DNA of 64,000 nucleotides from Candidatus Dormiibacterota bacterium. GTDB taxonomy: Bacteria > Chloroflexota > Dormibacteria > Aeolococcales > Aeolococcaceae. Positions 4,694 to 27,393 of the stretch are shown in pieces. Both the position numbers and the translations under genes were made by a program. Within the stretch, counting starts at the first letter, position 1; the number at the start of each line of letters is the position of its first letter. The stretch lies in contig DAITPY010000005.1 of assembly GCA_036833315.1 (NCBI GenBank), forward strand, positions 1,576 to 65,575, written 5' to 3'. The notes beneath the pieces are model-generated. The model was not told the DNA's origin, ran no database searches, and was given only the letters and a program-made list of their open reading frames with translations.

Positions 4694-4708
4694 GCGGCGA
4701 CCGGAGGC

Positions 4709-8974: not shown

Positions 8975-9028
8975 GATCCTATCATCCCGGCAGAACAGAT
9001 GTTCGCGGCGGGCGGACGGACGCGGACG

Positions 9029-9481
9029 TCAGCGGTGCCGGCTCCGGTCCTGCTCCGCCTCCAAGGCGAGCACGCTGCACAGGATCAGCAGGTCGTTCTG
9101 ACCGTCGACGACGTCGACGCCATACGAGTCGGCGAGGCTGATCCAGGCCTTCGACACCGTGGCGATGGCCTGACCGTTCTCGGTGACGGTGAAGTCGTGT
9201 CCGAGGAAGTTGCCGGTCATCTCCATCTCCGCTCCGCCGGCGACGGAGATGTTCCACTTCGGACGCAAGGGGTTGGAGAAACGTTGGTGCACCTCGGCAG
9301 TGACGCCGCCCGGCAAGGTGACCTCATACGTCGCCAGCAGCGAGACGAGCTTCCGGCTGACCTGCCCCACCTCATTGCCTGCCATGTCGTTGACGACCAT
9401 CAGGCCATGGAGGCTGAGCACCTTGCCGTCGACCTGCAACACAGGCTGGCCGGCGTCGTTGAAGATGTCGTTTGTCCTCAC
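9029..9481 (-). CDS. LOR/YxjI family (LURP-one-related, Tubby C-terminal-like fold) protein
   Basis: 150 aa. Its motif spacing (VSRKLVSL...YEVTL.GG...FSNPLRPKWNISV..G...TGNFLGHDFTV.ENGQAIATVSKAWISLADSYGVDVVDGQNDLLILCSVLALE) resembles B. subtilis YxjI / PF04525 as I recall it. Confidence 0.65.
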   Translation of the reverse strand: MRTNDIFNDAGQPVLQVDGKVLSLHGLMVVNDMAGNEVGQVSRKLVSLLATYEVTLPGGVTAEVHQRFSNPLRPKWNISVAGGAEMEMTGNFLGHDFTVTENGQAIATVSKAWISLADSYGVDVVDGQNDLLILCSVLALEAEQDRSRHR

Positions 9482-9580
9482 CGAGCCGGAAGATTCGCTC
9501 CTGGATCTGGTATCGCATCGGTCATTGATCCCTCAAGTGCTTTCGGGGACGTTGCCACCACTCTGCGCCTTCATGTGCGG

Positions 9581-10690
9581 TCACGCTCTGATCCCGGTGA
9601 CGTTGTAGGCCTGGATGGGCTGGGGGAAGCCCTTGAGCTGCAAAGGGCCGACCGGTTCGACGTCGACCAGGTCGGTGATCGCGGCATATGCCTTCGGCGC
9701 GAGCAGGATCTGGCCACCCGCAGCCTGAGCACAGAGCCGAGCTGCGAGATTCACGACCGTCCCGGTGGCGCGATAGTCGAACCGGCCCTCGAAGCCCACC
9801 CGGCCGAGCGTGGCATGTCCCTCGGCGATGCCGACACCGACATCGAGGTCGTAGCCGTTCAAGCGCCAGCCACGAGCGAGCGCGTTGGTCGCGTCGCGGG
9901 AATCGACGGCCATCCGCACCGCCTGCGCCGTGTGGTCGACGCAGGGCACCGGGTCGTTGACGATCGCCATGATCGAGTCTCCGACGAACTGCTCGAGCGT
10001 CGCCTGATAGTCGAGGATGAGATGGCCGACCGTGCCGTAGAACTGGTTCAGCACGCTCATCGTCTCCTCGGGCTCCGCCGTCGCCGAGAACGCGGTGAAG
10101 CCCCTGAGGTCCCAGAACACGATGGTCACCTCGCGCCGATGGGTCTCGAGCATCTGGCCGCCGCCGTCCAGGATGACCTCAGCAACCTGCGGGGAGAAGA
10201 AGCGGCGCAACCGGTCGAGGCCCTCGAGCTCCGCCACCTGACGCTGTACGCGATCCTCGAGGGTCCGGTTCAAGTCGGCGAGCTCGGCCGCCTGCGCCTG
10301 GATGGTGTCGTGATACGTCTTGATCCGCAGCAGCGATCGCACCCGGCTGAGCAGCTCCGAGGGATTGAACGGCCGGGCGATGAAATCATCGGCCCCCGCC
10401 TCGATAGTGTCGACCTTGTCCTGATCACCGCTCGAGGTCATCATCACCACCGGCAGGAGGCGCGTCTCCGGATCCTCGCGCAGACGGCGGCACACCTCGT
10501 AGCCCGAGATGTCGGGCATCACGATGTCGAGGAGGACCAGGTCGGGGCGCTCGGTGCGCACCTTCTCGAGACCGTCGAGACCGGAGTGCGCGAGCACCAC
10601 CGAATAGCCGCGTGGGGACAGCATCGCCTCGAGCAAGCGTGCGTTCTGGGGCGTGTCGTCGACCACCAGGACCTTCGCGGTCTGATCCAT
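9581..10690 (-). CDS. Response-regulator receiver domain fused to class III nucleotidyl (adenylate/guanylate) cyclase
   Basis: N-terminal REC: KVLVVDDTPQNARLLEAML...DLVLLDIVMPDISGYEV...VVMMTS. C-terminal CHD cyclase: VTIVFWDLRGFT (metal Asp), FVGDSIMAIV (second metal Asp), FDYRATGTVVNLAARL. Start ATG at 10690 overlaps the upstream gene's stop by 1 nt. Confidence 0.85.
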   Translation of the reverse strand: MDQTAKVLVVDDTPQNARLLEAMLSPRGYSVVLAHSGLDGLEKVRTERPDLVLLDIVMPDISGYEVCRRLREDPETRLLPVVMMTSSGDQDKVDTIEAGADDFIARPFNPSELLSRVRSLLRIKTYHDTIQAQAAELADLNRTLEDRVQRQVAELEGLDRLRRFFSPQVAEVILDGGGQMLETHRREVTIVFWDLRGFTAFSATAEPEETMSVLNQFYGTVGHLILDYQATLEQFVGDSIMAIVNDPVPCVDHTAQAVRMAVDSRDATNALARGWRLNGYDLDVGVGIAEGHATLGRVGFEGRFDYRATGTVVNLAARLCAQAAGGQILLAPKAYAAITDLVDVEPVGPLQLKGFPQPIQAYNVTGIRA

Positions 10691-11088
10691 CAGCCGCCAC
10701 CTCGCGACCGGTTGCAGTAGGCGAGTATCTCGCCCGGAAAGCTCTTGACGTCGATCGGTTTCATGATCGAGCCGTCGAAACCGGCATGGGTGAATCGCTC
10801 GCGATCGGCCGGCATCACCGAGGCTGTCACCGCGACCACGCCGATGCCCGCGGTGAGTGGATCCGCCCTGAGGTGCTCCAGCGCGGTGACACCGTCCATC
10901 CCAGGAAGTTCGATGTCCATGAGGATGAGGTCCGGCGCGTTCGTCGACGCCAGCTCGAGCCCGGTCTCGGCGTCACCGGCCTCCAGCGTGCGAAAGCCAT
11001 GGTACTGAAGGAGATCGCGGACGAGTTTGAGGTTCTTCTCGTTGTCCTCGACGATGAGAATCAGCTGACCATCGGCGAGCGGACTCAT
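10690..11088 (-). CDS. Stand-alone response regulator (REC domain only)
   Basis: True start is the internal MSPLADGQLILIVEDNEKNLKL... of the 175-aa ORF. Phospho-acceptor context DLILMDIELPGMDG, and the protein ends after the REC domain. ATGA start/stop overlap with the upstream kinase at 11085-11088. Confidence 0.8.
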   Translation of the reverse strand: MSPLADGQLILIVEDNEKNLKLVRDLLQYHGFRTLEAGDAETGLELASTNAPDLILMDIELPGMDGVTALEHLRADPLTAGIGVVAVTASVMPADRERFTHAGFDGSIMKPIDVKSFPGEILAYCNRSRGGG

Positions 11089-12719
11089 GTCACGCGCGCC
11101 GCCGCAACCTCGGGCGTGGCATCCCTTGCATCGTCTGGGCCGGTGGAAGTGATCGCCTGGGCGCGTGGCAACGTGAAGGTGAATGTGCTCCCCTTTCCTG
11201 GCGCGCTCTCCACCCACAGGCGGCCGCCGTGCAGCTCGACGATGCGCCTCGTCAGGGCCAGGCCAAGTCCGGTGCCCTCCTGCGCGTTCGACCCGCCCGC
11301 CTGCTCGAACTCCTCGAAGATCCGTGCCTGGTCAGCCATCGCGATCCCGGCCCCATCATCGCGGACGCTGACGACCACTCCGTCCGCCTCAGCGCGTGCT
11401 GTGACTTCCACATGTCCACCGCGGTCGGTGAACTTCAACGCATTGGTGAGCAGGTTGAAGAGCACCTGCTTGAGCTTCCGCTCGTCCGCTTCGAGAACTC
11501 CGCTGCCCGGGTCGACATCGAGCTGCAGGCTGATCCCGCTGCGCGTGGCGCGCTCGCGCATTAGTGCCACCGAGCTCTCGATCACGTCGGAGAGCGTGAC
11601 ATCGCTGACCTGCAGCTCCATCCTCCCAGCCTCGATCTTCGAGAGGTCGAGAATGTCGTTGATCAGCGCCAGGAGGTGGCGTCCCGACGTGTGGATGTCG
11701 GTGATGTAGTCGGCCTGCTTCTCGTTGAGATCACCGAAGAGGCGATCGAGGAGCACCTCGGAGAAGCCGATCACCGCGTTTAGCGGGGTGCGCAGCTCGT
11801 GCGACATGCTCGCCAGGAACTCCGACTTGTGCCGGCTGGCGCTCTCGAGCTCTCTGTACAGCCGCCCCAGCTCCTCGTTGGTCCGGTTGAGGTTCGCAGC
11901 CAGCAGGCCAAGTTCGTCGCGATTGGGCACCTCCACATGGCCCGAGAAATCCCCTTCGGCGATCGCAGCGAGTCGCGTGTTCACGCGCTTGAGGGGCCCG
12001 ACGAGCGACCACGAAAGAATGAAGCCGAGCAGCAGCGCCAGGACGACGGTCGCCGCGGCAACCGCGATGAAGAGGTGCTCCGAGTCCGCGTAGGCGGTTG
12101 TGTTCGCGGCGATCAGCGCAGCCGTGTCCCCTGTGGTGGTATTCACGAGCTGCTCGCTGAGCAGAGTCAAATCGTTGGCTTTTGGTTCGCCCTCTGAGGA
12201 CTGCAGTTGCAGAGCCTGGTTCGGCTTTCCTGCCGCGTCCAGCTTGAGGATGTCCGCAGCCACACGCGAGAATTGCACGTAGTCGCTCCGGATCTGGGTC
12301 AGCACCGCCCTCTCTGCGTCAGGCGGCACGAATCCCAGCTGCGAACTGTCGGAGGCTGGGCCGATTTGAGTGAGCACCGTCTGGATCGCTCCGTCCAGCG
12401 CCGAGCTTGCCCCGAGCGAGGTCGTCCCTCCGGTGAAGGTGTTGAGATCCTGACCGCCGGCGCGCAGCCCCACCAGCAGGCGCAGCTCGGAGGCATAGGT
12501 CTCGAGCTTCTGATAGGCGGCCGTCCGCTGCTGCAGCTTGCCGAGCGTCTCGATGCGGTCGTTCGAGTCGCCGAGGACGCGAAGGCCGAGGACGCCGACG
12601 GTTACCAGCAGGACGACGATGCTCACGAAGGCGACGAGAAGCTTGCGGTTGACCGTGGCCGGCACGCGCGCGACTGCACGCACGACGGGGTTGTCGTCCG
12701 GGTTCAGGAACGAGGGCAA
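11085..12719 (-). CDS. Sensor histidine kinase (TM-periplasmic-TM-HAMP-HisKA-HATPase_c)
   Basis: TM1: LLVAFVSIVVLLVTVGVLGL. TM2: AVAAATVVLALLLGFILSW. HAMP: LKRVNTRLAAIAEGDFSGHV. HisKA: SEFLASMSHELRTPLNAVIGFSEVL. HATPase_c: NLLTNALKFTDRGGHVEV...DDGAGI...GTGLGLAL. Confidence 0.85.
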   Translation of the reverse strand: MPSFLNPDDNPVVRAVARVPATVNRKLLVAFVSIVVLLVTVGVLGLRVLGDSNDRIETLGKLQQRTAAYQKLETYASELRLLVGLRAGGQDLNTFTGGTTSLGASSALDGAIQTVLTQIGPASDSSQLGFVPPDAERAVLTQIRSDYVQFSRVAADILKLDAAGKPNQALQLQSSEGEPKANDLTLLSEQLVNTTTGDTAALIAANTTAYADSEHLFIAVAAATVVLALLLGFILSWSLVGPLKRVNTRLAAIAEGDFSGHVEVPNRDELGLLAANLNRTNEELGRLYRELESASRHKSEFLASMSHELRTPLNAVIGFSEVLLDRLFGDLNEKQADYITDIHTSGRHLLALINDILDLSKIEAGRMELQVSDVTLSDVIESSVALMRERATRSGISLQLDVDPGSGVLEADERKLKQVLFNLLTNALKFTDRGGHVEVTARAEADGVVVSVRDDGAGIAMADQARIFEEFEQAGGSNAQEGTGLGLALTRRIVELHGGRLWVESAPGKGSTFTFTLPRAQAITSTGPDDARDATPEVAAARVT

Positions 12720-16318: not shown

Positions 16319-16684
16319 CTACGGCTCGGGGACGACCTCACCAATGGCCCGGCGGATCGCGCGGACGACCTCGTCCATTCGATGACCGTCAACTCGCGGT
16401 CCCAGCGGTCCGCGCACGAGGAAGTCGCGATCGAGGGTGGTGATCTCCTCACAGAACAGAACGCTGTCGAAGGGAACACTCCCGGCTCCGGCTGGAAGGC
16501 GGACGCGGGTCGGCCCGAGGCGCCCCCTCGAAAACAGAGGGACCACGACCAGGTCGTCACGCATGGTGTTGCGGACGTTCTCGGAGACGACCAGCGCCGG
16601 CCGGGGGTGATGCGGATCATCAGGCTGGCCCGGCGTATAGACGTACCAGATCTCGCCCCGACGAGGTTCCGGCGGATGTCGCAC
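16319..16684 (-). CDS. MazF/PemK-family toxin (mRNA interferase)
   Basis: 121 aa: GEIWYVYTPGQPDD...RPALVVSENVRN...DLVVVPLFSRG...FDSVLFCEEITTLDRDFL. The pattern matches PemK/MazF. Confidence 0.7.
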   Translation of the reverse strand: MRHPPEPRRGEIWYVYTPGQPDDPHHPRPALVVSENVRNTMRDDLVVVPLFSRGRLGPTRVRLPAGAGSVPFDSVLFCEEITTLDRDFLVRGPLGPRVDGHRMDEVVRAIRRAIGEVVPEP

Positions 16685-16695
16685 GGTGCGCCCGG

Positions 16696-16947
16696 TCAGG
16701 CGCGTCTCAGCCTGCGACGCACCGACTCACGTCGCACCTGGTGCCAGGCGTCCAGCTCGGCCGGGTCCGTTTCGCCTTCATCGGCAAACTGCAGCTCCAT
16801 GCCTGATCGTTGCTGCGCCGCGGACCAGAGCTGCAACGCCTCATCGACCACCTTGCTGCGATCGGAGTCTTCGTGCGCCTCGACATAGGCGTCGACATCG
16901 CGCACAAGCAGAGGATCGAGCGAGAGGCTGACCTTGATTCTTGGCAT
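16696..16947 (-). CDS. Ribbon-helix-helix (CopG/MazE-like) antitoxin
   Basis: Internal start MPRIKVSLSLDPLLVRDVDAYVEAHEDSDRSKVVDEALQLW is a typical RHH N-terminus. Lies immediately upstream of the MazF-like gene. Confidence 0.6.
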   Translation of the reverse strand: MPRIKVSLSLDPLLVRDVDAYVEAHEDSDRSKVVDEALQLWSAAQQRSGMELQFADEGETDPAELDAWHQVRRESVRRRLRRA

Positions 16948-16994
16948 CCTACCGATGGTAGCAGGATAGGTAGGATGACGAGCCTCGGGCGTCC

Positions 16995-19100
16995 TCAGAC
17001 GGCTTGAAGGACGGGAAGCCACCCGCGCAGCCGGCAGCCGTCGCCCACCGCGGAATCGATCTCGAGATGCCCGTCGAGGGCGTCGAGCCGGTCGGCCACG
17101 TTGGTGAGCCCCGATCCTCTGAGCACGGTCGCGACCTCGAATCCGCAGCCGTTGTCATCGACCTCGAAGCGCAGCACCCCGTCGGCTTCGCTGAGCCGGA
17201 CCGTGGCCAGTGACGCGCCCGCGTACTTCTGCACATTCTGGAGTGCCTCGAGCACGGAAAAGTACACCGCTGCCTCCTGCTCCTGCGGGTGGCGATCGAT
17301 GGTCCCGGCCTCCACGACAACCGGGACTGTCGCCTTGCGGGCCTGCGCCTGGAGCGCCTCCACGAGCCCTCGCTCGGCCAGGATGGGCGGGTAGATGCCG
17401 CGGGCCAGGTCTCGCAGGTTCTCGAGGGCTTCATCCGCCTCGGCCTTGAGCTGTTGCAGTGTGGCGCGCGCCTTATCCGGGTTCCTGTCCATGAGCATCT
17501 CGGCCAACCCCACCTTGACCTTGAGCGCGACCAGGTGCTGTTGTGCGCCATCGTGCAGGTTGCGCTCCAGCCGTCTTCGTTCCTCGTCCTGCGACCTGAC
17601 CAGCCGCTGACGCGAGGCGCGCAGCTCGTCGAGGCGCTGCAGCAGCTCGGCGGTGAGGCCGACGTTCTTGAGCACCAACCCCGCCTGGTGCGCGAGGTCC
17701 TCGAGCAGCTTTAGCTCGATAGGGGTCAGCGACTCACCGCGGCGCTTGGTGATCGTCAGCGCTCCCAGGAGATCCCCCTGATGCAGCACCGGCACGGCAC
17801 GCTGGACGCCGTCCATCTCGGGAAGATATGTCCCGACGAGGGAGAGCGGCGCCTGTCCATTCGACGTCTCCGGATAGGTCGCCGCCGCACGCAACTGCTC
17901 ACCAGAACGCAGCCAGACAGTCGCAGCCGCTGCGGATGTTCCCTCCTGCAGGACCCGAGCCATGCGAGGCAGCACCTCCCCCGCCGCGTAGGTCTCGGCG
18001 ACACGCTGCGAGAACTCGCTCAGCACCTCGTACGGTGTGGCTCGTTTGCCGTACACGAGCCGGTTCGCGATGTGTTGCAGGCGCACGCGCACGGGTTGGA
18101 AGCCGACCGCGACGATCGCTGTGGCAAGGATCGAAAGTCCCAGGTTCGGCTTGCCTCCGCTCCCGACCAGTGTTCCGATGCCCACGGCAATGCCGACGTA
18201 GACCGCGGTGATCAACGCGGCAAGCGCGGCGTAGACGATGGCGCGACTGATGACGATGTCGATGCCGTACAGCCGGTACTTGAGGATCGCGATGCCGCAG
18301 GCGACCGGAATGGCGACACCGATGCCCGCCTCGAGGATGGCATTCGACAGCGGCTGCGCATACGGGGACGAGAACCCGAGGGGAAAGGTCGCCGCATACG
18401 CAACCAGGGTGGCGACAACGGCAAACGCAAACCACTTGATCTGCTGCCGCTCGTCGCCGGCAGACCGCCGGTAGCGAACCACGATGCTCGCGCCGGCCAC
18501 AAGGAGTAGCAGCAGGCTGACAGGCCACGTCACCCAGAGCCAGCCCAGCACGGGAGCGCTACCCTTGATGGCGGTCGGATCAGGGATGGACCGGACATTC
18601 GCCGCAATCGAGATCGGCCCCTCGTACAGGATCGTCCCAACCATCAGGAGAGCCGTGACCACGACCGCCGCGCCTGCGACCGGCCGCCAGCGCGAACTGA
18701 CCAGCCGGCCGGTCGGAAAGAGCAGTAGGACGAAGAGGAACGCACCGCTGGGAAAGACCGGCAGGATGATCCAGTTCGAGAGCCAGGCGGCCCATTGCAC
18801 TCCAGGCAGTCCCGGCGCGCCGAGAAGGCCTCGAAACGCGTATTCGCCGGAGGCTGCATGGAGCGATCCCAGGAGCGCGGCAGTCAGGAGCAGCCAGCCG
18901 ATGGGATTTCTCCGCTCCCGCGTTGCCACGATCACACCCACCGGAAGAATCCCTAGCTGAATCACGAGGTCGGGACCGAATGGGCTGGTGAGCACGTTGA
19001 GGTCGCCGTTCAGATAGGCCAGGGTCCACGCTACCGCCTCCAGCCCCAGGGTGGCGAGCGTGCTGGTCAGGGCGATCGTGAACGCTGTCCTCGACCTCAT
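16995..19100 (-). CDS. Polytopic membrane sensor histidine kinase, HisKA_3 (NarL-partner) type, orphan
   Basis: About 8-10 TM N-terminal domain, a GAF-like region, HisKA_3 (LERNLHDGAQQHLVALKVKVGLAEML) and HATPase_c (YFSVLEALQNVQKYAGAS...VDDNGCGF). Start taken at MRSRTAF (19100). The ORF-track N-terminal extension to 19358 runs across the att repeat and is rejected. Confidence 0.8.
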   Translation of the reverse strand: MRSRTAFTIALTSTLATLGLEAVAWTLAYLNGDLNVLTSPFGPDLVIQLGILPVGVIVATRERRNPIGWLLLTAALLGSLHAASGEYAFRGLLGAPGLPGVQWAAWLSNWIILPVFPSGAFLFVLLLFPTGRLVSSRWRPVAGAAVVVTALLMVGTILYEGPISIAANVRSIPDPTAIKGSAPVLGWLWVTWPVSLLLLLVAGASIVVRYRRSAGDERQQIKWFAFAVVATLVAYAATFPLGFSSPYAQPLSNAILEAGIGVAIPVACGIAILKYRLYGIDIVISRAIVYAALAALITAVYVGIAVGIGTLVGSGGKPNLGLSILATAIVAVGFQPVRVRLQHIANRLVYGKRATPYEVLSEFSQRVAETYAAGEVLPRMARVLQEGTSAAAATVWLRSGEQLRAAATYPETSNGQAPLSLVGTYLPEMDGVQRAVPVLHQGDLLGALTITKRRGESLTPIELKLLEDLAHQAGLVLKNVGLTAELLQRLDELRASRQRLVRSQDEERRRLERNLHDGAQQHLVALKVKVGLAEMLMDRNPDKARATLQQLKAEADEALENLRDLARGIYPPILAERGLVEALQAQARKATVPVVVEAGTIDRHPQEQEAAVYFSVLEALQNVQKYAGASLATVRLSEADGVLRFEVDDNGCGFEVATVLRGSGLTNVADRLDALDGHLEIDSAVGDGCRLRGWLPVLQAV

Positions 19101-19191: not shown

Positions 19192-19219
19192 TGGTGGAGG
19201 CGCCGGGGATCGAACCCGG
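19192..19219. repeat. Distal att repeat: 28-bp exact copy of the 3' end of ssrA
   Basis: TGGTGGAGGCGCCGGGGATCGAACCCGG is identical to 25346-25373 and in the same orientation. It covers CCA, the acceptor 3' strand and the T-arm of the tmRNA. Confidence 0.75.
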
Positions 19220-19220
19220 A

Positions 19221-19385
19221 GACCTCCCCACTGACGTTGACCAGGACTTGCTCATCGATCTGCTCATCGGCCCGTTCTACTACCGCATCTTTATCACGGG
19301 CCACCGCGTCGAACCCGATCTCTCGGAGAAGCTCGTCGATTTCGTGCTCTTGCGGCATATCCCGAAGGTGGCCACCCGCCCTTAG
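19221..19385 (+). pseudogene. TetR-family regulator C-terminal fragment (5'-truncated at the island junction)
   Basis: Translation ...DQDLLIDLLIGPFYYRIFITGHRVEPDLSEKLVDFVLLRHIP... resembles a TetR C-terminal ligand domain. It has no HTH N-terminus and starts exactly where the ssrA homology ends. Confidence 0.3.
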
Positions 19386-20005
19386 ACGCCGGGCTTCACC
19401 ATCACGTCGGCGAAAGCCGAGCGCTTCCTGGGCTCGTTACCGGATCCGCGCTTCAGACACCTCGATATGGCGTGACGATTGGGTTCCCCCTCGAAACTCA
19501 CTCCGTTACGGCGGCGACGTCCTCAGCTGCTGCCACACCCCCCTGTGGCTGCTGCCATATCCCCCTGCGGCGCCGGAGGCGTCGCCGTCACCCCCTCTCG
19601 GACGGGATCGTGGTGCCATCAAGTGTCGCTCGCTCGCGTGACCGCAACCCAGATGGTGCGTCGCGACCATGTCACATCGGGGCATCAAGTCTTAAGACCG
19701 CGCGGGCCTGGGGTCGGGTGGGTATCGTCGGCGAGGCTCACACGACACGCCTTGCCGCAGACCACCCGGGTCAGCGAGGCAGACTCACGGCGCTCGACTC
19801 ACGTCTATCGCCGCCGCGATTGATGAGCAGTTGAAAGACCACGGTTCGTAACTCATTCCCTTCCTGATGGAGACCCCCGCCGGCTCCCATGTCGGGGCGC
19901 TGTCAGGCTCATTGACGCCGTACAGGGCGGTCTGTCATGCTTCCGCGACGGGGGCCGATGAGATGTGGGCGACCCCGAGACAACGCGGAAAGCAAGGGGT
20001 AGACG

Positions 20006-21178
20006 GTGAGCTCGTTCAACACGCGTGTGCTTATCCGTGCCGTCGCGGCGACTGCCCTCGGGCTGCTGATCGCCCTGCCCAACACGCTGCCAGCGGGAGC
20101 GGCGGGAGTGCAGACATTCACCCCGGGCCGCGCCGTGTACGACGTCGGCATACACAGCTCGGTGACCGCCGCCCAGCTGGAGGCTACCACCGCCTCGAGC
20201 ATCCGCCATTACACCGCCACGGTAAAGGTCGGCAGCACCTCGTACACCTATGCCATCGTCGGCAAGAACCCGGCCAAGAAGGTCACCAACGCCTCCACCA
20301 CGGTGAAGGTGAAGCTGATCCCTCTGGTCATGAAGTTCTCCAAGGGGGACACGTGGGACCCGACCAAGGTGGACAGCTGCGATTCCGGCGCAACGCCGCT
20401 CAGCCGCGTCCAGAAGTCACCCCTTGTCGTCAAGCAGGCGTGGACGTGGGGAGGCACGGCGATCGGCACCGGCCAGGTGACCGATGCCTATCAACGCGCT
20501 GACTTCTGGCAGTATGCGAAGCCTGGAGGGGTCAACCCCACGTACGGAGTGATCCTCAGCGTGAGCACCCTCTCGGCCGTCACGGTGAACGTGCCCGACG
20601 CGTATGCAGCCACCGCCAGCATCGGTTGCGGCAACGGCCTCTTGGGCGCCACCGACATCAACTGGCTCGATCCCTACCTCCAGGGCACGGTCATCCCCTC
20701 GCTGGCGAGCAAGGGCGTGAGCCCTTCGACCCTGCCCATCTTCGTTCTGCACAACTTCGTTGAGTACATCGGCACCACCAGCCAGTGCTGCGTGCTCGGC
20801 TACCACAACGACTACAGCGCCGGCGGCGGGATCCAGACCTATGGCCTGGGCATGTACGACAACTCTGGAGTCTTCGTCGGATCCTCAGACATCTCCGCGC
20901 TCTCGCACGAGATCGGCGAGTGGCAGAACGACCCGTACACCACCAACCCCACCCCGTCGTGGGGTCATATCGGCCAGGTGACGGGGTGCCAGAGCAATCT
21001 CGAGGTGGGCGATCCCCTCTCGGGCACCACCTTCCCTGACACTGTCGGTGGCTTCACCTACCACCCGCAGGAGCTAGCCTTTTTCTCCTGGTTCTATCAC
21101 CAGACCCCGAGCCTCGGGGTGAATGGCTGGTACTCCGATAAGGGGACGTTCACAACGTCCGCCGCCGCCTGCCCGTAA
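20006..21178 (+). CDS. Secreted protein of unknown function (390 aa, GTG start, Sec signal peptide)
   Basis: Signal peptide VLIRAVAATALGLLIALPNTLPAGAAG. Several Cys pairs, a Ser/Thr/Gly-rich body and an HEIGEW motif near residue 300. No family recognised by eye. Confidence 0.6.
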   Translation: MSSFNTRVLIRAVAATALGLLIALPNTLPAGAAGVQTFTPGRAVYDVGIHSSVTAAQLEATTASSIRHYTATVKVGSTSYTYAIVGKNPAKKVTNASTTVKVKLIPLVMKFSKGDTWDPTKVDSCDSGATPLSRVQKSPLVVKQAWTWGGTAIGTGQVTDAYQRADFWQYAKPGGVNPTYGVILSVSTLSAVTVNVPDAYAATASIGCGNGLLGATDINWLDPYLQGTVIPSLASKGVSPSTLPIFVLHNFVEYIGTTSQCCVLGYHNDYSAGGGIQTYGLGMYDNSGVFVGSSDISALSHEIGEWQNDPYTTNPTPSWGHIGQVTGCQSNLEVGDPLSGTTFPDTVGGFTYHPQELAFFSWFYHQTPSLGVNGWYSDKGTFTTSAAACP

Positions 21179-21674
21179 GGATCGAAGCCTTCTTCCCGGC
21201 GATCCCGGGCGTGCCAGGTCGGGCGGATAGGTCGCCGAGATCGCCGGCCATGAGCTAGCCTGAATTAGAACGTGGGGATGGCGCAGCGGGGTGAACTAGC
21301 AACCGCCGCAGCCGACCCCCCGGGGGAAAGGAGCGAATTACCGCATGGCGACGAACCGCGCGCCGCGGTACGCGCTGTTCTCGTTGCCATCGTTCTGGCT
21401 GCCAGTCCTACAGACGGCGCCGAGCTTCGAGAGTTCGTTGTGCGCGAGCTGGATCAGGCCTTCTGTCGGCTTCCGAGTTGCGGGCACCGGTAGCGCTGTG
21501 CGAGTGCCGAGTGATGAAGCGGAGCTCGTCGGCCGTCAGCGATGCACGATTGCGTCGGAGGCGGCGGGCTTCGACTTCGGGAGAGTCTTCTCGAGCCGCT
21601 GCACCTGCTCTTCGAGCTCTCGGCGAGCGCCGATGTACGCACCGGCCTTCACGCCGTGCCTCGTATTTGCGATG

Positions 21675-21709
21675 CCGCAGGTTGCGGAAAAAAACGCGCC
21701 AACCTGCGG
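21675..21709. promoter_or_regulatory. Perfect 10-bp inverted repeat CCGCAGGTTG-N15-CAACCTGCGG with A7 loop
   Basis: Read directly from the sequence. Lies about 180 nt upstream of the phosphoesterase gene inside the island. Confidence 0.3.
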
Positions 21710-21889
21710 GAGCTCGCGTACGACCGGGGCGCGTCGCGAGGGGTCGGCGCAGGTTTTTCTCGAAGGCGGGGTGGTGGTGCCTCGACGTTTTTCTCGCGGC
21801 TAACCGCACGATCAACGCGGTGTTGGACGTCGAAGGCTGGTTCCAGCAACCAACCTCGCCCGGGTTATCGGTGTCAATATGCACTGACG

Positions 21890-22897
21890 ATGAGAAGGGT
21901 GTTCCCGGGGCTCGTCGTGGGTTGCTTGCTGGCCGCCTGCGGTAGCAACAGTGATCGAGCGCGGAGCTCGACTCCCACGCCGGCGCCGACCGACAGCTAC
22001 ATCGGCACAAGCGCTCCGACGCTGCTGCCGACGCCGACGCCGACAGCAACACCGGTGTCGCTGACGCCACGACCAACCGCGAGACCGACCAGCGCGCCGC
22101 CTCAGAACAACCCCCGGCCACCCTCGCGGCCGCATGTCCTGATCGTGATGCTCGAGAACAAGGGCTACGCGGCGACGCTTGGCACGTGTTCGGCGGACGG
22201 GTACCTCTGCTCGCTGGCCTCGCAGTACGCGAGCGTGATCGGCTGGAACGGGGTCGGCCACCCCTCCCTGCCCAACTACCTGGCGATCACCTCCGGATCG
22301 ACCCAGGGCTGCAGCAGCGATTCCTGCGCCCGGGGTAGGTACCACACCGACCTGATGGCGCAGCTCAACGCTGCGGGCGTCCCCTGGACGATGTATGCGG
22401 AGTCGATGCCGACGCCCTGTGACTTCAACGACAGCGGCAACTACGTCGTCCACCACAACCCCGCCCCGTACTACACGGACGCCACCTGTCCAGCCCGCGA
22501 CCTGCCCTATCCGGGGGCTGCTCGACTGGTCACGACGCTCGACGGAGCGGCACCGCCCGACCTCGTCTGGATCACGCCGAACAACGTCGATAACATGCAC
22601 AGCGGCACCGTCCAAGCCGGCGACGCCTGGCTCAGGGCCAACCTCCCGGGCGTGCTCACGTCCTCGTGGTTCACGAGCCGCAATGCCACCGTGATCGTCA
22701 CCATGGATGAGAACGACGTCGACGGCTCCGGAGTCCCCATGGTGGTGATCTCAAACAATGCCAGGGGTGTGGGGGCTGTGACCATGCACGGCAACCACTA
22801 TGGAACCCTTCGCGCAATTGAGGAGGCGTTCCACCTAGCCCTACTCGGCAGCGCACGAAGCCCTAACTACGGAGACATCATCCGGTACTTCGGCTGA
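21890..22897 (+). CDS. Phosphoesterase-family lipoprotein (phospholipase C / acid phosphatase AcpA-like, PF04185)
   Basis: Lipoprotein signal MRRVFPGLVVGCLLAACGS, then HVLIVMLENKGY...NGVGHPSLPNYLAITSGST...HHNPAPYY...VWITPNNVDNMHSG, typical of the PLC/AcpA phosphoesterase family. The ORF track over-extends the N-terminus to 21542. Confidence 0.75.
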   Translation: MRRVFPGLVVGCLLAACGSNSDRARSSTPTPAPTDSYIGTSAPTLLPTPTPTATPVSLTPRPTARPTSAPPQNNPRPPSRPHVLIVMLENKGYAATLGTCSADGYLCSLASQYASVIGWNGVGHPSLPNYLAITSGSTQGCSSDSCARGRYHTDLMAQLNAAGVPWTMYAESMPTPCDFNDSGNYVVHHNPAPYYTDATCPARDLPYPGAARLVTTLDGAAPPDLVWITPNNVDNMHSGTVQAGDAWLRANLPGVLTSSWFTSRNATVIVTMDENDVDGSGVPMVVISNNARGVGAVTMHGNHYGTLRAIEEAFHLALLGSARSPNYGDIIRYFG

Positions 22898-22904
22898 CCC
22901 AATG

Positions 22905-23130
22905 GGGTCGTCACTGTCTACTCCGGCGACCCGCTCGGGATCACGGCTGGACCCGACGGAGCAATGTGGTTCACGTGTGCCTCCAACGCTATTGGGCGGA
23001 TTAATGCTCCGGTAACCCCAACCTAATCAGCCTAACCCGGCGTCGGGCGCGGTCGGCAGCAAAGTAACCATCACTGGTCAAGATCTCTCTGGCACCGCGG
23101 CCCTCGACGAAAACATACCCGAAGACGTGT
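22905..23130 (+). pseudogene. Gene debris: Vgb/NHL-type beta-propeller repeat fragment followed by IPT/TIG-like fragment in another frame
   Basis: Frame a: VVTVYSGDPLGITAGPDGAMWFTCASNAIGRINAPVTP (streptogramin-lyase-like repeat). Frame b: PASGAVGSKVTITGQDLSGTAAL (IPT-like). Neither fragment has a start or an intact ORF. Confidence 0.35.
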
Positions 23131-23236
23131 GTTGCACCGAGTTATCCCAGCGAGAACGGCCGGATGATCGGCGACGACTTCTCATATAGCGGACCGGTGG
23201 GCATGATCTTCGTTATGTGGGCGTCGCTAGCCACTA

Positions 23237-23847
23237 GGATGGACGGATTCAGTCGGCAACGCGCAACGCCGCAGACGTGCCGCGATACGCGGGCGGATCG
23301 ACGGGGCCGAACTCCTGGACGCGGACCTCGGTGACCGTCTGCTCGGGCAATCCTTCCCGGTTGTTAGCTGACGTGCCGGGACACCTGACGAAGGTGTCGC
23401 GCAGCACCTCGAAGGTGAGCGAGCCACCGTACTTTCCGGTCGCGAACCACGGCGCCGCTCCCAGCAGTGGTCCGCGTCTAGGAGCTCGACCTCGTAGCGG
23501 AGTCCCATATCGTCCTCTTCGAGCAACGTGATCGGCCCCAACGTCTTGTGACCGAAACGCGGGTCCTTGCCATGCTGGAACGTCACTTTCATGCGGTCCC
23601 GGTCGGCGATGGTCTTAGAGAAGCAGCCGGGTCGGAACCGCTGCAGGAAGTGGCCTTCGAGGACAGAGTCGACCTCGCGCCACTGGTCGAACACGGCCGC
23701 GTGGCCGAACAGGACGCCGGGTCCGCGGCCAGCCACGCGATTGGCCGGCTCGGGATCGCGTACCTCCGCGGCGGCGAACCTGTTGGCTGCCTTCCAAAGC
23801 GCACCCGGCCCGAGGCCACGCCGACGAGCCAACGCCTTGAGCTCCAT
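23237..23847 (-). pseudogene. HK97-family phage prohead protease (S78) remnant, frameshifted
   Basis: MELKAL...VLFGHAAVFDQWREVDSVLEGHF...FRPGCFSKTI...MKVTFQHGKDP...GLRYEVELLDADH matches the prohead protease N-domain. After LLDADH the reading frame must shift (+1) to keep protein-like sequence (...GGSLTFEVLRDTF...). Confidence 0.5.
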
Positions 23848-24235
23848 CGAGGCGACGCTGCGGCCATCGCTACACAGCTGCCGCACCGCGTCGATGCCGC
23901 ACTCCTTTAAGGAGCGCGTAGAAGTCGCCACCGCGCTGCAGGCGATGGGCGCCGTTCGCGGATGGATGCGGCTCCGGTTCGGACACGACATAGGGGACGT
24001 ACCTGGCCGCGACGCGCTCGAGGAAAGCGCTGACGGCGATGTCGTCACATAGCTCGGCCAGCCGGTGGATAGGGCCGTATGTCCACCGCCCACGTCCAAT
24101 TTGCCCAGGGCGACGCGGCATAGGGGGCTTCTGAGTCGACCACGAGCGCCGTTCGCCCTTGCAGGTCGGCATAGAGTTGGCGCAGATCGGCACCGACGCC
24201 CGACGCGGCAGTCGAGCCGTAGCCGTGGACTACGG

Positions 24236-24670
24236 TCAGGCAGGCGCCAGTCGTCGGCCGATCGCTTTGGCGGCCTCGCTGTCCGCCTCGACGTCTGCCT
24301 CCAGCGCAGCGTCCCAGAACGGCTTCGAGTCCGGGTCGCGTTTCGGTGGTTTCTCGCCCCATGGATTGTCGCGGCAACGGACGTATACCGAGGGGTCTTC
24401 AACCCCTGCGACGGCGCAGACGTCGGCCAACAGCCCCCTCCAGGTCGCCCAGTCGGCCGCGTACGCGGCAATGGTTACGTCGCCCAGCCCTTGTGGCGTC
24501 CAGCCGGGCACAACCTCGCGACCGCTCTGGTAAGCCACGGCGACTGCGCACGTCAGTGCCGCAAGTTCGAGTCCGGGCGGTCCTACCAGCGTCGTAACGC
24601 GACCATCTTCGAGCAGCGGGCCGAGCAGGCGAGGTGTGTCGACGAACAAGGCGATGGTGTCGTCACGCAT
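24236..24670 (-). CDS. Hypothetical island protein (about 145 aa)
   Basis: Internal start MRDDTIALFVDTPRLLGPLLEDGRVTTLVGPPGLELAALTCAV...RCRDNPWGEKPPKRDPDSKPFWDAALEADVE. Composition is protein-like but no family recognised. Confidence 0.35.
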   Translation of the reverse strand: MRDDTIALFVDTPRLLGPLLEDGRVTTLVGPPGLELAALTCAVAVAYQSGREVVPGWTPQGLGDVTIAAYAADWATWRGLLADVCAVAGVEDPSVYVRCRDNPWGEKPPKRDPDSKPFWDAALEADVEADSEAAKAIGRRLAPA

Positions 24671-24887
24671 CGCGGTCAGGGAAGATCGTGAAGGTGAAGC
24701 ACTCGTCGCGTGGCGGGACGATGTAGCCACCCATCCGGCGCCAGCCGGCCGGGAGCTCGTCGGCGACAGGCTCGGCCACCGCAGGGTCGACACGTCGCTG
24801 GCAGCGGTGCGAGCAGAACCGGGCGTCCGAGCGCTTGGCGCTGAAGGCGCGATGACACCGCTCGCAGGTGAGTCGATGGCGCGCTAA
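24663..24887 (-). CDS. Small zinc-ribbon protein (CxxC...FCSxxC) of phage/island type
   Basis: LTCERCHRAFSAKRSDARFCSHRCQRR motif. Start codon uncertain (non-ATG). Lies immediately inside the island next to ssrA. Confidence 0.3.
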   Translation of the reverse strand, partial: LARHRLTCERCHRAFSAKRSDARFCSHRCQRRVDPAVAEPVADELPAGWRRMGGYIVPPRDECFTFTIFPDRDA

Positions 24888-25345
24888 TGGCAGGCTATTG
24901 CTCAAAGTTGGCCCTCCAAAGCCAAAAGCGCCGACGCACTTGAGATCGGCAATCGGCGCCAACGCAAAGATTGGAATTGTTTCGGGAAGGGTCCCGGGCG
25001 TGCCAGCGATCCGGAAATTCACGAGACACCCCATCCCCCCTTCGCGCGGGATCTCCAGTTGCGGCCAGCACAGTCGGCGCGAGTCTCACGACCTTGTGAG
25101 GCCCGTCGCGGTGATGCCTGCTCATATCGGCGTGAAACCCCTGCCGCGATTTTTTTCGCGGCTAACAGGACGTTCCAATAAGGAGCAATCCCCCGATGAG
25201 CACCGCCCATATCCCAACCATGGCGGGATCTTAGGCTGCCCTCGCACGGCCACATCCGAGGGTGTTGTGTGAGGTAGCCCTGAGCTGTTAGGGGTCACGG
25301 TAGGGGTCAAAACCCCGTTCCGGTCCCGATTCCGCATTCAGTGGA

Positions 25346-25373
25346 TGGTGGAGGCGCCGGGGATCGAACCCGG
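25346..25373. repeat. Proximal att repeat (3' end of intact ssrA)
   Basis: Identical to 19192-19219. Confidence 0.75.
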
Positions 25374-25720
25374 GTCCGAAGCCGCGTTCCATGCGACATC
25401 TACGAGTGTAGTCCCGGTTTTGATCTCACCGGAGCCGCGCCCTGGGACCAGGCTCGGCTTCGGCCAGTCTCGGTGTTTGTCCCGCCCGGCGCCGAGGCGC
25501 CACCGGGCGGCGAGGCTGCTTGCATTAACGTCGGGTCCGGCTCCCACAGCCGAGAAGCCGGTCGACGTCAGGCCGAAGCCTGAGCTTTTTTCGTCTCTGC
25601 TACTTACGCAGCGAGGGCGAGGGGTGCGTTATTCGCACGTATATTTTTCCCGGTTTTACGAGCCCGGGGCTCGACTCGCATTCGCACGACCCACGACCCC
25701 GTCGAAACCAGTACGCCCCC
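25346..25720 (-). ncRNA. ssrA: tmRNA (SsrA), about 375 nt
   Basis: Minus-strand 5' end GGGGGCGUACUGGUUUCGACGGGG (tmRNA consensus GGGG...GG.UUCGAC.GGG). 3' end ...GGUUCGAUCCCCGGCGCCUCCACCA, a tRNA-Ala-like acceptor with G3:U70. Internal tag frame GCG AAU AAC GCA CCC CUC GCC CUC GCU GCG UAA gives ANNAPLALAA*. smpB lies 4.4 kb away. Confidence 0.9.
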
Positions 25721-25977: not shown

Positions 25978-27393
25978 ATGCCCGAGGTGATCGTCATCGG
26001 AGCGGGCCCGGTGGGCCTCGCGACGGCAATGCTGCTCGCAAAGGACGGCTATCGCGTCACCGTCCTCGACAAGGACCCGGATGGGCCCCCGGACGAGCCG
26101 TGGGAAGCATGGGAGCGCTGGGAGCGCAAGGGCGTCGCCCAGTTCCGGCAGCCGCATTTCATGATGCCGCGCTTCCGGCACGTCCTCGATTCGGAATTCC
26201 CTGAGGTGCGCAGGCGAATCGAGAAGATCGGAGGCCGGCGCGTCAACCTGACCGCGATCCTGCCGCATTCACTGCCGGATCGGTCGAGCCGGCCGGGCGA
26301 CGAGCGCTTCGAAACGATCACGGCCCGGCGACCCGTGCTCGAGTCCGCCTTCGCACACGCCGCCGAGAGGACCCCCGGGGTCGAGATCCGGCGCGGTGTC
26401 GGCGCGATCGAACCCATCGCCGGCCATGAGGCGCCGCCCGGCGTGCCCCACGTGACGGGAGTGATCACAACGAAGGGGGATCGGCTCGCCGCCGACATCG
26501 TCGTCGATGCGATGGGCCGGCGATCGAAGCTGTCCGAGTGGGTCGAACGGCTCGGCGGGCGCGCCCCTGCGGTTGAGGCGTCCGACGCGGGCTTTGCCTA
26601 CTACACCCGCCATTTTCGATCGCGCGACGGACAGGTGCCCGAGGTCACGGGTCCCTTCGGTGTCGACATGGGGACTGTCCGGATGTTGACGCTGCCTGGG
26701 GACAACAACGCCTGGACGCTGGCGGTCGTCCCGATGGCCGGCGACACGCCGTTCAAGGCTCTGCGCCACAACGACGTCTGGACCCGCGTCGTCGCGTGTG
26801 TCCCACATGCCGCGCACTGGCTCGACGGCGAGCCGATCACCGACGTCATCGCGATGGCGGGCGTCCTCGACCGCCTCTGCCGGATCGTCGTCGACGGTCG
26901 TCCCGTCGTGACGGGGCTCGTCCCGGTCGGCGATGCCTGGGCGTGCACGAACCCGACCGCGGGCCGCGGGATCTCCCTCGGCCTGGCACACGCCGTCGCG
27001 CTCCGCGACACAGTTCGCGAGAAGGCGGGCGACCCGGTGGGGCTGGTCGCGCGCTTCGACGAGGTGACGGAAGCGACGCTCACGCCCTGGTTCCGGGACC
27101 AGTACGACCGCGACCGCCAGCGCGCCGCCGACACGCAGGCCGTGCTCGATGGCCGACCGATGCCACCGCCAGATCCCGCTCAGGCGAAGCAGACCGCGTT
27201 ACTCGCCGCCGTCGCTGCCGACCCCGAGGTCGCCCGAGGCTGGTTGGACACGCTCACGTGCCTCGCCCTGCCGGCGGAGGTCATGCAGCGCGCTGGGATG
27301 CAGGAACGGGTCGCGGCCTTCGCGGGGAGGACCCCCGATCCGATGCCGGGTCCGACGCGCCCGGACCTCCTCGCGGCAGTCGCCGGCAGCTGA
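25978..27393 (+). CDS. FAD-dependent oxidoreductase (flavin monooxygenase / geranylgeranyl-reductase-like)
   Basis: N-terminal Rossmann motif VIVIGAGPVGLATAMLLAKDGYRVTVLDK and a later GD motif region (DIVVDAMGRRS). Confidence 0.75.
   Translation: MPEVIVIGAGPVGLATAMLLAKDGYRVTVLDKDPDGPPDEPWEAWERWERKGVAQFRQPHFMMPRFRHVLDSEFPEVRRRIEKIGGRRVNLTAILPHSLPDRSSRPGDERFETITARRPVLESAFAHAAERTPGVEIRRGVGAIEPIAGHEAPPGVPHVTGVITTKGDRLAADIVVDAMGRRSKLSEWVERLGGRAPAVEASDAGFAYYTRHFRSRDGQVPEVTGPFGVDMGTVRMLTLPGDNNAWTLAVVPMAGDTPFKALRHNDVWTRVVACVPHAAHWLDGEPITDVIAMAGVLDRLCRIVVDGRPVVTGLVPVGDAWACTNPTAGRGISLGLAHAVALRDTVREKAGDPVGLVARFDEVTEATLTPWFRDQYDRDRQRAADTQAVLDGRPMPPPDPAQAKQTALLAAVAADPEVARGWLDTLTCLALPAEVMQRAGMQERVAAFAGRTPDPMPGPTRPDLLAAVAGS

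Follow-up and report, generated by a model that had tools for sequence, protein, structure and literature searches.

Two copies of a 28-nt sequence, TGGTGGAGGCGCCGGGGATCGAACCCGG, stand in direct orientation in the 64-kb stretch of Dormibacterota DNA analysed here (the window), one at the 3' end of the tmRNA gene (ssrA) and the other 6.1 kb away, and the question that they raise is how the DNA between them arrived and what has become of it. An earlier note on this DNA had proposed a decayed ssrA-targeted island or prophage remnant. Our analysis supports that proposal and refines it, and each check suggested there gave the expected outcome; the repeat, an empty site in a relative, a conserved attachment arm and a pseudogene together point to a dead, mosaic remnant of site-specific integration into the 3' end of the tmRNA gene, a reading to which we give a probability of roughly 0.85. 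Features are collected in Table 1.

Allowing up to three mismatches, the window contains exactly two copies of the 28-mer, both on the plus strand as written above, and the sequence is not multi-copy there. A repeat-finding search independently returned the same pair, and in either copy identity ends at both ends of the 28-mer, including the abrupt inward stop described in the earlier note. The tmRNA gene is full length, with a score of 181.7 bits over positions 1-374 of the 374 in the Rfam model, a tag peptide of ANNAPLALAA and 95-97% identity to the ssrA genes of relatives. Reading the core on the RNA strand (CCGGG-TTCGATC-CCCGG-CGCCTCC-ACCA) assigns its parts, in order, to T-stem, T-loop, T-stem, 3' acceptor strand, and discriminator plus CCA. 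Outward of the distal core lies the upstream region of a sensor histidine kinase gene, and the core overlaps a mechanical ORF extension of that gene. Two of the marks by which Islander-type islands integrated into tDNA are recognised are present, namely an intact tmRNA gene and, at the other end and directly oriented, its displaced 3' fragment.

Table 1. Features of the ssrA-kinase interval, in window coordinates.
Feature	Position	Strand	Evidence or remarks
HisKA_3 sensor histidine kinase	16995..19100	-	Chromosomal flank; Pfam
Distal 28-bp core, attR side	19192..19219	-	28/28 match; displaced original ssrA 3' end
TetR-family regulator C-terminal fragment, ~55 codons	19217..19385	+	Pfam TetR_C_11, E 1.8e-10
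Non-coding module	19408..19591	+	87% identity to L113 9116-9302
390-aa secreted protein	20006..21178	+	Large uncharacterised family
Probable lipoprotein phosphoesterase (phospholipase C / acid phosphatase type)	21890..22897	+	Pfam PF04185, E 9e-20
Gene debris, 41 codons, Vgb_lyase-type beta-propeller repeat-like	22901..23026	+	Pfam PF24684, E 4e-5, below gathering score
S78 fusion pseudogene	23261..24619	-	495-aa protein; tblastn, Pfam, phrog_80, tblastx
Small zinc-ribbon ORF (CxxC...CxxxC)	24663..25034	-	Homologous part ~24663-24890
ssrA-side arm	25249..25345	-	Conserved; two tandem TGACCCCTA motifs
ssrA (tmRNA)	25346..25720	-	Intact; ARAGORN and Rfam RF00023
Proximal 28-bp core, attL side	25346..25373	-	T-arm, 3' acceptor strand and ACCA of ssrA

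The earlier note had predicted that a genome lacking the insert would hold one 28-mer with the HisKA_3 kinase adjoining ssrA, and the contig L025 is exactly such an empty site. There ssrA runs directly into the kinase upstream region past a single 28-mer, the equivalent of window 25766-25345 being joined contiguously to 19219-16989 at ~92% DNA identity (kinase 93% in amino acids, ssrA 97% in nucleotides). The gap in L021 is nearly empty too, and the absence of the insert from a related genome is a further mark of Islander-type islands. A distal repeat occurs at the equivalent position in L019, L020 and L024, each time bounding a different insert; L024 belongs to the same species, with flanks 95-97% identical, and holds an unrelated 4.2-kb insert between the same repeats, with both arms present and no integrase. 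Kinase homologs are 84-99% identical and synteny is kept across L018-L025. The contig DATCNX010000119.1 (L017, an NCBI metagenome-assembled genome contig), possibly from the same assembly as the window, has the same layout of ssrA, insert and distal repeat, with the 28-mers at the same 6154-nt spacing and the same tmRNA gene and called genes between. All sequences compared are metagenome assemblies. Six different occupancy states can be lined up at one Dormibacterota locus, and the gap between ssrA and the kinase is a strain-variable insertion hotspot.

The recognisably phage-like portion of the insert amounts to only ~2.1 kb next to ssrA, with matches to the L019 and L028 elements limited to 23261-25345. 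The frameshifted HK97-type prohead protease named in the earlier note is indeed here, as the S78 prohead serine protease domain at the C terminus of a 495-aa protein whose N-terminal domain is unknown. The gene survives over its full length but only as a pseudogene spread across several frames: in-frame stops lie near 24250-24262, and the reading frame shifts near 24130-24270, 23909 and 23456. Searched by tblastn with the L028 protein it gives three colinear pieces at 51-74% amino acid identity (E 6e-133); it matches Pfam Peptidase_S78 and phrog_80, and in tblastx the region is colinear with L028, L027 and L019. The adjoining zinc-ribbon ORF has weak matches to HNH/zinc-ribbon families of PHROG and 30% identity to orf90 of L019 (pairwise E 9e-9), which lies directly upstream of the capsid and protease genes, the same relative position as in the window.

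Between this ORF and ssrA lies the arm, with TGACCCCTA motifs at 25289-25297 and 25301-25309, the second beginning exactly 45 nt from the core, and with ~10 nt resembling the 3' end of an integrase gene. The motif pair and its 45-nt spacing are common to L026, L027 and L028, where an integrase is present, and to L024; in L027 and L028 the stop codon of the integrase overlaps the first motif. We presume that the motifs are arm-type integrase binding sites.

Related elements retain what the window has lost. In L028 a tyrosine integrase gene ends 58 nt from the 3' end of ssrA; in L026 and L027 this integrase and the arm adjoin a 28-mer copy at the contig end, and L019 combines the same integrase with the distal repeat. 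Relatives of this integrase (40-66% identity) convergently adjoin tRNA genes, as expected for integrases that target tDNA. The parent of the window's island can be identified as a member of this tyrosine-integrase family of related Dormibacterota (L026-L028; L019). None of the related elements was recovered whole: in the DNA analysed, L019 lacks its ssrA side and L028 its distal end. The L019 element spans at least 9 kb and carries an integrase, HTH regulators, an AAA_25 replication protein, an HK97-type capsid and an S78 protease, with no portal, terminase or tail domains detected in it; that of L028 exceeds 11 kb and has a weak tail-protein match, and may therefore be a full prophage. A broader and more tentative proposal, which we hold at well under even odds, is that the relic is the trace of an undescribed family of ~10-kb phage-like Dormibacterota elements. 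Their gene set would comprise a tyrosine integrase, an excisionase-like HTH protein, a primase-helicase and an HK97 capsid or S78-fusion, with no portal, terminase or tail; they would target ssrA, or in sister lineages tRNA genes, through the conserved tandem-TGACCCCTA arm, and the gap would be a turnover hotspot of entry, decay and leftover secreted-enzyme cargo.

The lack of integrase and excisionase stated in the earlier note was borne out. Neither a Pfam scan in six frames, which gave no match to Phage_integrase or another recombinase, nor tblastn with the family's proteins detected a remnant of an integrase, excisionase or primase in the island; the L019 and L028 integrases found no tblastn match in the window, and no integrase of their family lies anywhere in its 64 kb. 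The integrase that Islander-type islands carry inside, beside the target gene, is missing here, as are the complete structural, packaging and lysis modules with intact frames of a functional prophage, and the island has no DNA match among 50,697 phage records. The GC drop reported earlier is real but modest: island GC is 0.650, below that of every other stretch among 232 sliding 6.1-kb windows, whose mean is 0.682 (sd 0.016), and it falls as far as 0.592 at 22750-23249. The reported flip of coding strand relative to both flanks holds for the three distal genes, which lie on the plus strand; the proximal relic genes lie on the minus strand, as ssrA and the kinase do.

These observations can be ordered into a history of integration and decay. 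The attP of an element whose family is still intact in related Dormibacterota would have recombined with ssrA, presumably by tyrosine-integrase catalysis; the donor would have had the family layout of a tyrosine integrase beside ssrA, HTH and excisionase-like genes, a primase-helicase and a capsid/prohead-protease module. Crossover probably fell inside the 28-bp block, which runs from the T-arm to the CCA end. The element's own 28 bp would have regenerated a functional ssrA, and the original 3' end would have been displaced by 6.1 kb to lie beside the histidine-kinase gene that formerly followed ssrA. As to where in the block exchange took place, in the window and L024 the identity opens precisely at the T-stem's 5' base, and in L019 3 nt earlier; position 7 of the T-loop is changed from C to T in the ssrA-side copy of L024 and is C in the distal copy, and this one polymorphism, on which the position rests, fits a crossover 5' of position 7. 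The ssrA gene of L024 has other substitutions nearby, among them an unexplained cluster just 5' of the T-arm. In the order of decay that we favour, some 4.4 kb (integrase, regulators, primase-helicase) would later have been deleted, leaving the ssrA-side arm alone, while frameshifts and stop codons gathered in the protease-fusion gene. Loss or replacement would also have removed the element's distal part together with its second arm, and the DNA that now stands there is of a kind found in other islands as well. The island is unable to excise by itself.

The distal 3.8 kb, from 19220 to about 23030, is a patchwork of modules common to other islands. It begins with the TetR-family fragment, whose truncation coincides precisely with the inward end of the distal core; only CGG is common at the junction. 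The database homologs of this fragment are all short (54-90 aa), and at 84-87% DNA identity it resembles fragments in the tRNA-Thr islands L109-L114; the tRNA gene was found in L110 and L113, where the fragment lies in islands adjoining tRNA-Thr, and in L113 the reading frame extends further upstream. The non-coding module that follows holds a 22-nt tandem repeat at 19526-19569 and also lies in a tRNA-Thr island of another Dormibacterota contig, in a different order. The secreted protein, the phosphoesterase and the gene debris that the earlier note had placed in the insert are all present. The first, with a predicted metzincin/adamalysin-like fold, comes from a family of over 1800 uncharacterised proteins, and its gene and promoter region (19907-21214) are found elsewhere in different contexts. 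The phosphoesterase probably starts at MRRVFPGLVVGCLLAACGS, with a lipobox read from the translation that marks a probable lipoprotein; the MAG annotation calls it as 22148-22897. The Vgb_lyase-type debris follows directly in frame after its stop, within the stretch of lowest GC. Absent from the window is the distal TGACCCCTA pair, which L019 and L024 carry ~82 nt inward of the distal core.

A junction so unlike a native element end, with no TGACCCCTA pair and a TetR fragment at the core edge, requires us to assume at least one further rearrangement, and a single integration and successive ones are indistinguishable here; the distal 3.8 kb may be foreign to the element. It is possible, if the less likely course, that the island grew by accretion: the distal part would be what remains of an unrelated, earlier ssrA island or cis-mobilisable element, the regenerated ssrA would later have received an L028-like element, and the middle att copy and the mobility genes of both elements would have been lost. 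The two halves do differ in strand and in relatives, the family match and arm being confined to the proximal one; the distal modules recur in other islands beside integrases or tRNA-Thr; the lowest GC and gene debris coincide with the boundary at 22750-23250, and Dehalococcoides offers documented cases of accretion and of ssrA islands in tandem (PMC3146451). Against this, the island contains no third copy of the core, even with up to eight mismatches allowed, and no integrase remnant of any family, and no element ended by the TetR fragment was found at ssrA elsewhere, those of L110 and L113 adjoining tRNA-Thr.

Continued mobility of the island, as a cis-mobilisable element served in trans by a related integrase, is improbable. 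Such a role has been proposed for integrase-less islands with intact ends (PMC3146451), and L024 has the same combination of two arms and no integrase; in the window both cores are perfect and the ssrA-side arm keeps both motifs, but the distal motifs are missing, the family's integrase is nowhere in the 64 kb, and no excised form or circular junction was observed. The view that the distal 28-mer arose by chance, by a partial local copying of ssrA unconnected with integration or through chimeric assembly, as the shortness of 28 bp, its overlap with the mechanical kinase ORF extension and the metagenomic origin of all data might suggest, is effectively refuted by the comparative data: 100 dinucleotide-preserving shuffles gave no match, three further contigs, whose inserts differ, have the displaced copy at the homologous position and it is absent where the site is empty, the MAG contig repeats the layout (though possibly from the same assembly) and database records place the TetR-fragment ORF on 4 contigs.

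That elements insert at the tmRNA gene has been recognised for over 20 years, and to that extent the decayed integration described here is an ordinary finding. Its interest lies in bringing a well-known type of event to the little-studied Dormibacterota, which are abundant in soil and have no cultured representatives, with a precisely mapped att site (28-bp core and conserved arm) and a confirmed empty site. The locus offers a convenient metagenome marker for strain-level variation and a starting point for defining the integrative elements of the phylum; a literature search found no paper on such elements in this lineage or on mobile elements of Dormibacterota. The cargo, a metzincin-like secreted protein and a lipoprotein phosphoesterase, supplies candidates for accessory extracellular functions.

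Among known systems, we compared phage satellites, namely P4-like elements, PICIs and capsid-forming PICIs (10.1101/2022.09.08.507074). The gene set of L019 is satellite-like; the window, in contrast, has none of the defining functional genes, neither the integrase nor the primase of elements that combine integration, replication and capsid-related genes in ~10-15 kb and have no tail or lysis genes. Should these elements truly be satellites, they would form the first system of mobile element and helper phage inferred for Dormibacterota.

CP4-57 of E. coli K-12 is a cryptic prophage at ssrA that retains its integrase and excisionase and can still excise. The window's relic is likewise a defective phage-derived element downstream of ssrA, delimited by a copy of the 3' end of ssrA, but retains only a pseudogenised structural gene. 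A cryptic prophage at ssrA is also described in Shewanella (PMC5148205).

The islands that tyrosine integrases form at tRNA and tmRNA genes (Williams' 'Traffic at the tmRNA gene'; the Islander database, PMC4383910) differ in that the window has no integrase or other mobility genes and its distal arm is replaced. They agree in the ssrA 3' target, a gene regenerated by element DNA, the displaced direct 3' fragment at the far end, the tyrosine integrase that related elements carry beside the target gene, and an identity block beginning at the T-stem, which fits a T-loop-type site. The ssrA-specific islands of Dehalococcoides (McMurdie et al. 2011, PMC3146451) use a serine recombinase (DsiB) and a 20-bp repeat and form long tandem arrays, whereas here we find a tyrosine integrase family, a 28-bp repeat and one repeat pair. 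Some islands there also lack an integrase and are interpreted as fixed or cis-mobilisable, and the two systems share a strain-variable hotspot at ssrA, strain-specific cargo and direct repeats that copy the 3' end of ssrA; insertion in the T-loop region is a probable further likeness.

The 6.1-kb stretch between the tmRNA gene (ssrA) and the HisKA_3 histidine-kinase gene is most aptly called a fixed relic, which supports and sharpens the earlier note's reading of a decayed ssrA-targeted element. Its boundaries are set by a 28-mer, TGGTGGAGGCGCCGGGGATCGAACCCGG, which occurs exactly twice in the window, both times on the plus strand, and an independent repeat search of the window recovered the identical pair. 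There was no third copy across the window with up to 3 mismatches allowed, matches were seen in 0 of 100 dinucleotide-preserving shuffles, and a search inside the island for a degenerate third core at up to 8 mismatches returned only a chance-level match (23436-23463). One copy is the 3' end of the tmRNA gene (tag ANNAPLALAA; Rfam score 181.7 bits, gathering score 47, aligned to model positions 1-374 of 374). On the RNA strand the repeat reads CCGGG/TTCGATC/CCCGG/CGCCTCC/ACCA and spans the whole T-arm, 3' acceptor strand, discriminator and CCA of tmRNA. Sequence identity stops sharply at either edge of both copies. The direct repeat and the abrupt loss of identity claimed from the sequence both held up, as did the proposed drop in GC: the island, at 0.650, is the lowest among 232 sliding windows of equal length (mean 0.682, sd 0.016), with a minimum of 0.592 at 22750-23249. 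Given the minus-strand orientation of ssrA, the insert lies downstream of its 3' end, and outward of the distal copy is the upstream region of the kinase gene. The layout here is matched by an NCBI MAG contig (L017, GCA_036565045.1), with equal spacing of the 28-mers and the same called genes between.

Contexts were fetched for several close homologs of the kinase, which carry the label Candidatus Dormibacteraeota. The interval between ssrA and the kinase was found in six states (Table), and the comparison shows the locus to be a recurrent integration hotspot. The earlier note had suggested looking for an empty site, and one was found in L025, where a single 28-mer is present, ssrA is contiguous with the kinase upstream region, and window segments 25766-25345 and 19219-16989 abut directly. 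In the same-species locus L024 (source ERZ1700618) the insert encodes CE2_N, PQQ propeller and Pyridox_ox_2 proteins and is bounded by ssrA and a distal repeat copy. Because the arms of the window and L024 (~85-91% identical) are less alike than the flanks of the same pair (95-97%), we read the two inserts as probable independent acquisitions of related elements, not one ancestral insert.

Table. Features of the window, followed by comparison loci and the related element family (locus coordinates are those of the fetched contigs).
Feature or locus	Position	Strand	Remarks
MazF/PemK-type toxin gene and small upstream ORF (likely antitoxin)	16319-17022		directly downstream of kinase
28-mer, distal copy	19192-19219	+	
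TetR_C_11 C-terminal fragment	19217-19385		starts immediately inside distal core
Insert	19220-25345		6.1 kb between ssrA and kinase (reference)
390-aa gene	20006-21178		signal peptide; HExxExxxD; family >1800 members, no Pfam model
Phosphoesterase, probable lipoprotein	about 21890-22897		PF04185 family
Vgb_lyase-like debris	22895-23026		41 codons, in frame right after phosphoesterase stop codon
Pseudogene of 495-aa protein	24619-23261		colinear with L028 protein, 51-74% aa identity
Zinc-ribbon ORF	24663-25034		homologous to L019 orf90, which precedes capsid gene in L019
ssrA-side arm	25345-25249		inner edge: ~10 nt resembling integrase 3' end
28-mer, proximal copy	25346-25373	+	
tmRNA (ssrA)	25346-25720	-	ARAGORN and Rfam, full-length
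FAD-binding oxidoreductase gene	25978-27393		5' side of ssrA
RNase P RNA gene, bacterial class A	62857-63235	+	Rfam, 280.5 bits
L025	ssrA 2782-3156; kinase start 3248		kinase 93% aa, ~92% DNA; empty site
L021			kinase 87% aa; nearly empty, 232 nt from ssrA to kinase
L024			same species, flanks alike over 5.7 and 11.2 kb; unrelated 4.2-kb insert
L018			kinase 86% aa; 3.9 kb with three unknown genes, distal repeat absent
L019			kinase 90% aa; insert of at least 9.9 kb, ends in distal 28-mer
L020			kinase 90% aa; 12-kb contig, only last 2.4 kb of L019 insert, to same distal 28-mer
ssrA-targeting Dormibacterota element family	L019 762-9909; L028 about 2000-11149; L026, L027		partial recovery, L019 and L028 not end to end

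Variation at this locus extends past the insert. The FAD-binding oxidoreductase gene is found in the window and L024, is absent from L018 and L021, where an MFS gene abuts ssrA, and is replaced in L025 by three small unknown genes; because it varies too, both sides of ssrA are plastic. A contig scan with the FAD-binding protein returned distant relatives only (at most 61% identity), none with ssrA nearby. The MazF/PemK-type toxin locus is a further variable spot, with a PemK-type gene called at the same position in L024 and none called beside the kinase in L019, L021 or L018. The ssrA gene itself also differs. In L021 it ends without the encoded terminal CCA (...CCTCCAGAT, 9744-9771), whereas it is encoded in the window and in the rest of the relatives compared. 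In L024 (5586-5612, just 5' of the T-arm) there are ~8 substitutions in 15 nt, GTTGCGCATGACAC versus GTCGCATGGAACGC in all other relatives, accompanied by a C-to-T change in the T-loop; these changes might have arisen by local conversion or have been brought in by another kind of element.

Relatives of the integrase encoded in L019 (contig Ga0120158_10000025) were collected from metagenomes, and with them a family of ssrA-targeting elements was partially recovered. Its members carry a tyrosine integrase, HTH_3, HTH_17, a primase-helicase (AAA_25, with or without Toprim) and, as a structural part, either an HK97 capsid and S78 protease or a 495-aa S78 fusion protein. The L019 insert encodes the tyrosine integrase, HTH_3, HTH_17, AAA_25, an HK97-type capsid and the S78 protease. 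In L028 (contig Ga0209219_1000002) the integrase, 85% identical to that of L019, ends 58 nt from the ssrA 3' end, convergent with ssrA, and is followed by HTH_3, HTH_17, a Toprim and AAA_25 primase-helicase, the 495-aa protein, whose C-terminus is the S78 prohead protease, and an HNH protein. The integrases of L026 (97%) and L027 (92%) have the same arm and a 28-mer copy at the end of short contigs, the 28-mer lying beyond the integrase by about 550 nt and 57 nt respectively. No portal, terminase or tail Pfam domains were seen in L019, its capsid had no match in IMG/VR, and these elements may be phage satellites.

A conserved TGACCCCTAnnnTGACCCCTA arm lies between the core and the stop codon of the integrase gene. 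It has two tandem TGACCCCTA motifs, and the start of the second is exactly 45 nt away from the core in the window as well as in L024, L026, L027 and L028. The first motif is overlapped by the integrase stop codon in L027 and L028. A second motif pair lies ~82 nt inside the distal core in L019, L020 and L024, and we infer that the motifs are putative arm-type binding sites of the integrase. More distant integrase relatives (40-66% identity) are convergent beside tRNA genes for Gly, Pro, Leu, Ser, Lys, Trp and Thr, a placement characteristic of tyrosine integrases that target tDNA; loci L032-L053 likewise hold more distant relatives beside many different tRNA genes. At one further locus (L029, 2893-3037) an integrase 82% identical to the ssrA-associated one has the same TGACCCCTA pair yet adjoins tRNA-Leu(taa), which points to probable target switching within one integrase family with the arm motif retained.

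How much of such an element survives in the window was assessed with the L019 and L028 proteins. The island matches were the L019 S78 protease and the L028 495-aa protein; other than the protease and the zinc-ribbon ORF there was no match in the island, and the remaining weak matches (E 4e-5 and weaker) were elsewhere in the window or negligible. The pseudogene is broken over several reading frames with in-frame stops, and its C-terminal third is the frameshifted prohead protease that had been recognised from the sequence. The protease domain is 31-36% identical in amino acids to proteases of Rhodococcus and Streptomyces phages (actinophages) and is the sole part matching the phage collection, in which no DNA-level match to the insert was found among 50,697 records. 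Relative to L028, a deletion of ~4.4 kb has brought the zinc-ribbon ORF close to the arm; in L028 this stretch holds the primase-helicase, the regulators and the integrase. A six-frame Pfam scan of the insert, with stops replaced by X and the frame holding two intact genes scanned separately as genes, found no integrase, recombinase, excisionase or replication domains, and this result, together with the negative L019 and L028 protein searches, confirmed the absence of integrase and excisionase stated in the earlier note.

The distal 3.8 kb of the island is a patchwork. Homologs of the TetR fragment are, in a database of 5.8 billion proteins, solely fragments of 54-90 aa, and those at L109-L114 (DNA 84-87% identical) are on other Dormibacterota contigs with Phage_integrase genes; the integrase genes of L110 and L113 come right after a tRNA-Thr gene, and tRNA-Thr was seen wherever a tRNA gene was found. 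A second segment, at 19408-19591, matches the same foreign island in a different order, and within the non-coding module common to L113 the window has a 22-nt tandem duplication (GCTGCTGCCACACCCCCCTGTG / GCTGCTGCCATATCCCCCTGCG, 19526-19569). In L113 the TetR frame runs on upstream, whereas the window copy breaks off precisely at the point where the element arm would be expected to start. A TCGAAC-containing stretch lies ~20 nt upstream in L113; origin of the fragment by integrase action at a pseudo-core in the TetR gene is not supported, the window and L113 having only CGG in common at the junction. The 390-aa gene was considered as an integron-like cassette because a truncated integrase adjoins its 95% homolog in L106, and this was rejected: the recurring unit is the gene and its promoter region only (19907-21214), and the shared DNA comprises the gene with promoter-like and terminator-proximal regions and no flanking repeats. 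This unit is found at 94% identity beside the truncated integrase in L106/L107 and at 83% in an unrelated context in L108. The Vgb_lyase-type repeat could mean that a longer gene has recently acquired a nonsense mutation, or that debris was joined in frame by chance. As a whole, the distal 3.8 kb may have been carried by the same element, may be an older island (accretion) or may be a later replacement.

The evidence fits the standard model of tDNA integration (PMC4383910): a tyrosine integrase catalyses recombination between attP and the 3' portion of a tRNA or tmRNA gene, element DNA makes the gene whole again, and the opposite end is marked by the fragment that was displaced. Here, attP of the element would have recombined with the 3' part of ssrA, incoming DNA would have restored the gene, and the displaced 3' fragment would have been left at the far end. 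The first T-stem base is where the identity block begins in the window and in L024, and in L019 the block begins 3 nt before that base; because it is shared, or nearly so, among these, we regard this boundary as a property of the family and not a later deletion. In L024, T-loop position 7 is T in the ssrA-side copy and C in the displaced copy, which is suggestive only of a crossover 5' of this position, the ssrA of L024 also having the substitution cluster upstream of the T-arm. The distal arm is lost in the window though the distal core is perfect, and the island might conceivably still be moved by a related integrase.

Three of the four hallmarks of a tDNA-integrated island were found here, namely an intact target gene, a displaced fragment and an empty site, and the fourth, an integrase, is lacking from the window island. 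It does not qualify as a functional prophage, nor is it itself a phage satellite: compared with satellites (10.1101/2022.09.08.507074), the gene set of the L019-type relative is satellite-like, whereas that of the window island is not. Our literature search on Dormibacterota prophages found no paper. Integrated ssrA islands are already a well-known kind, of which this is an additional example, and those of Dehalococcoides have such repeats and a T-loop insertion point (PMC3146451).
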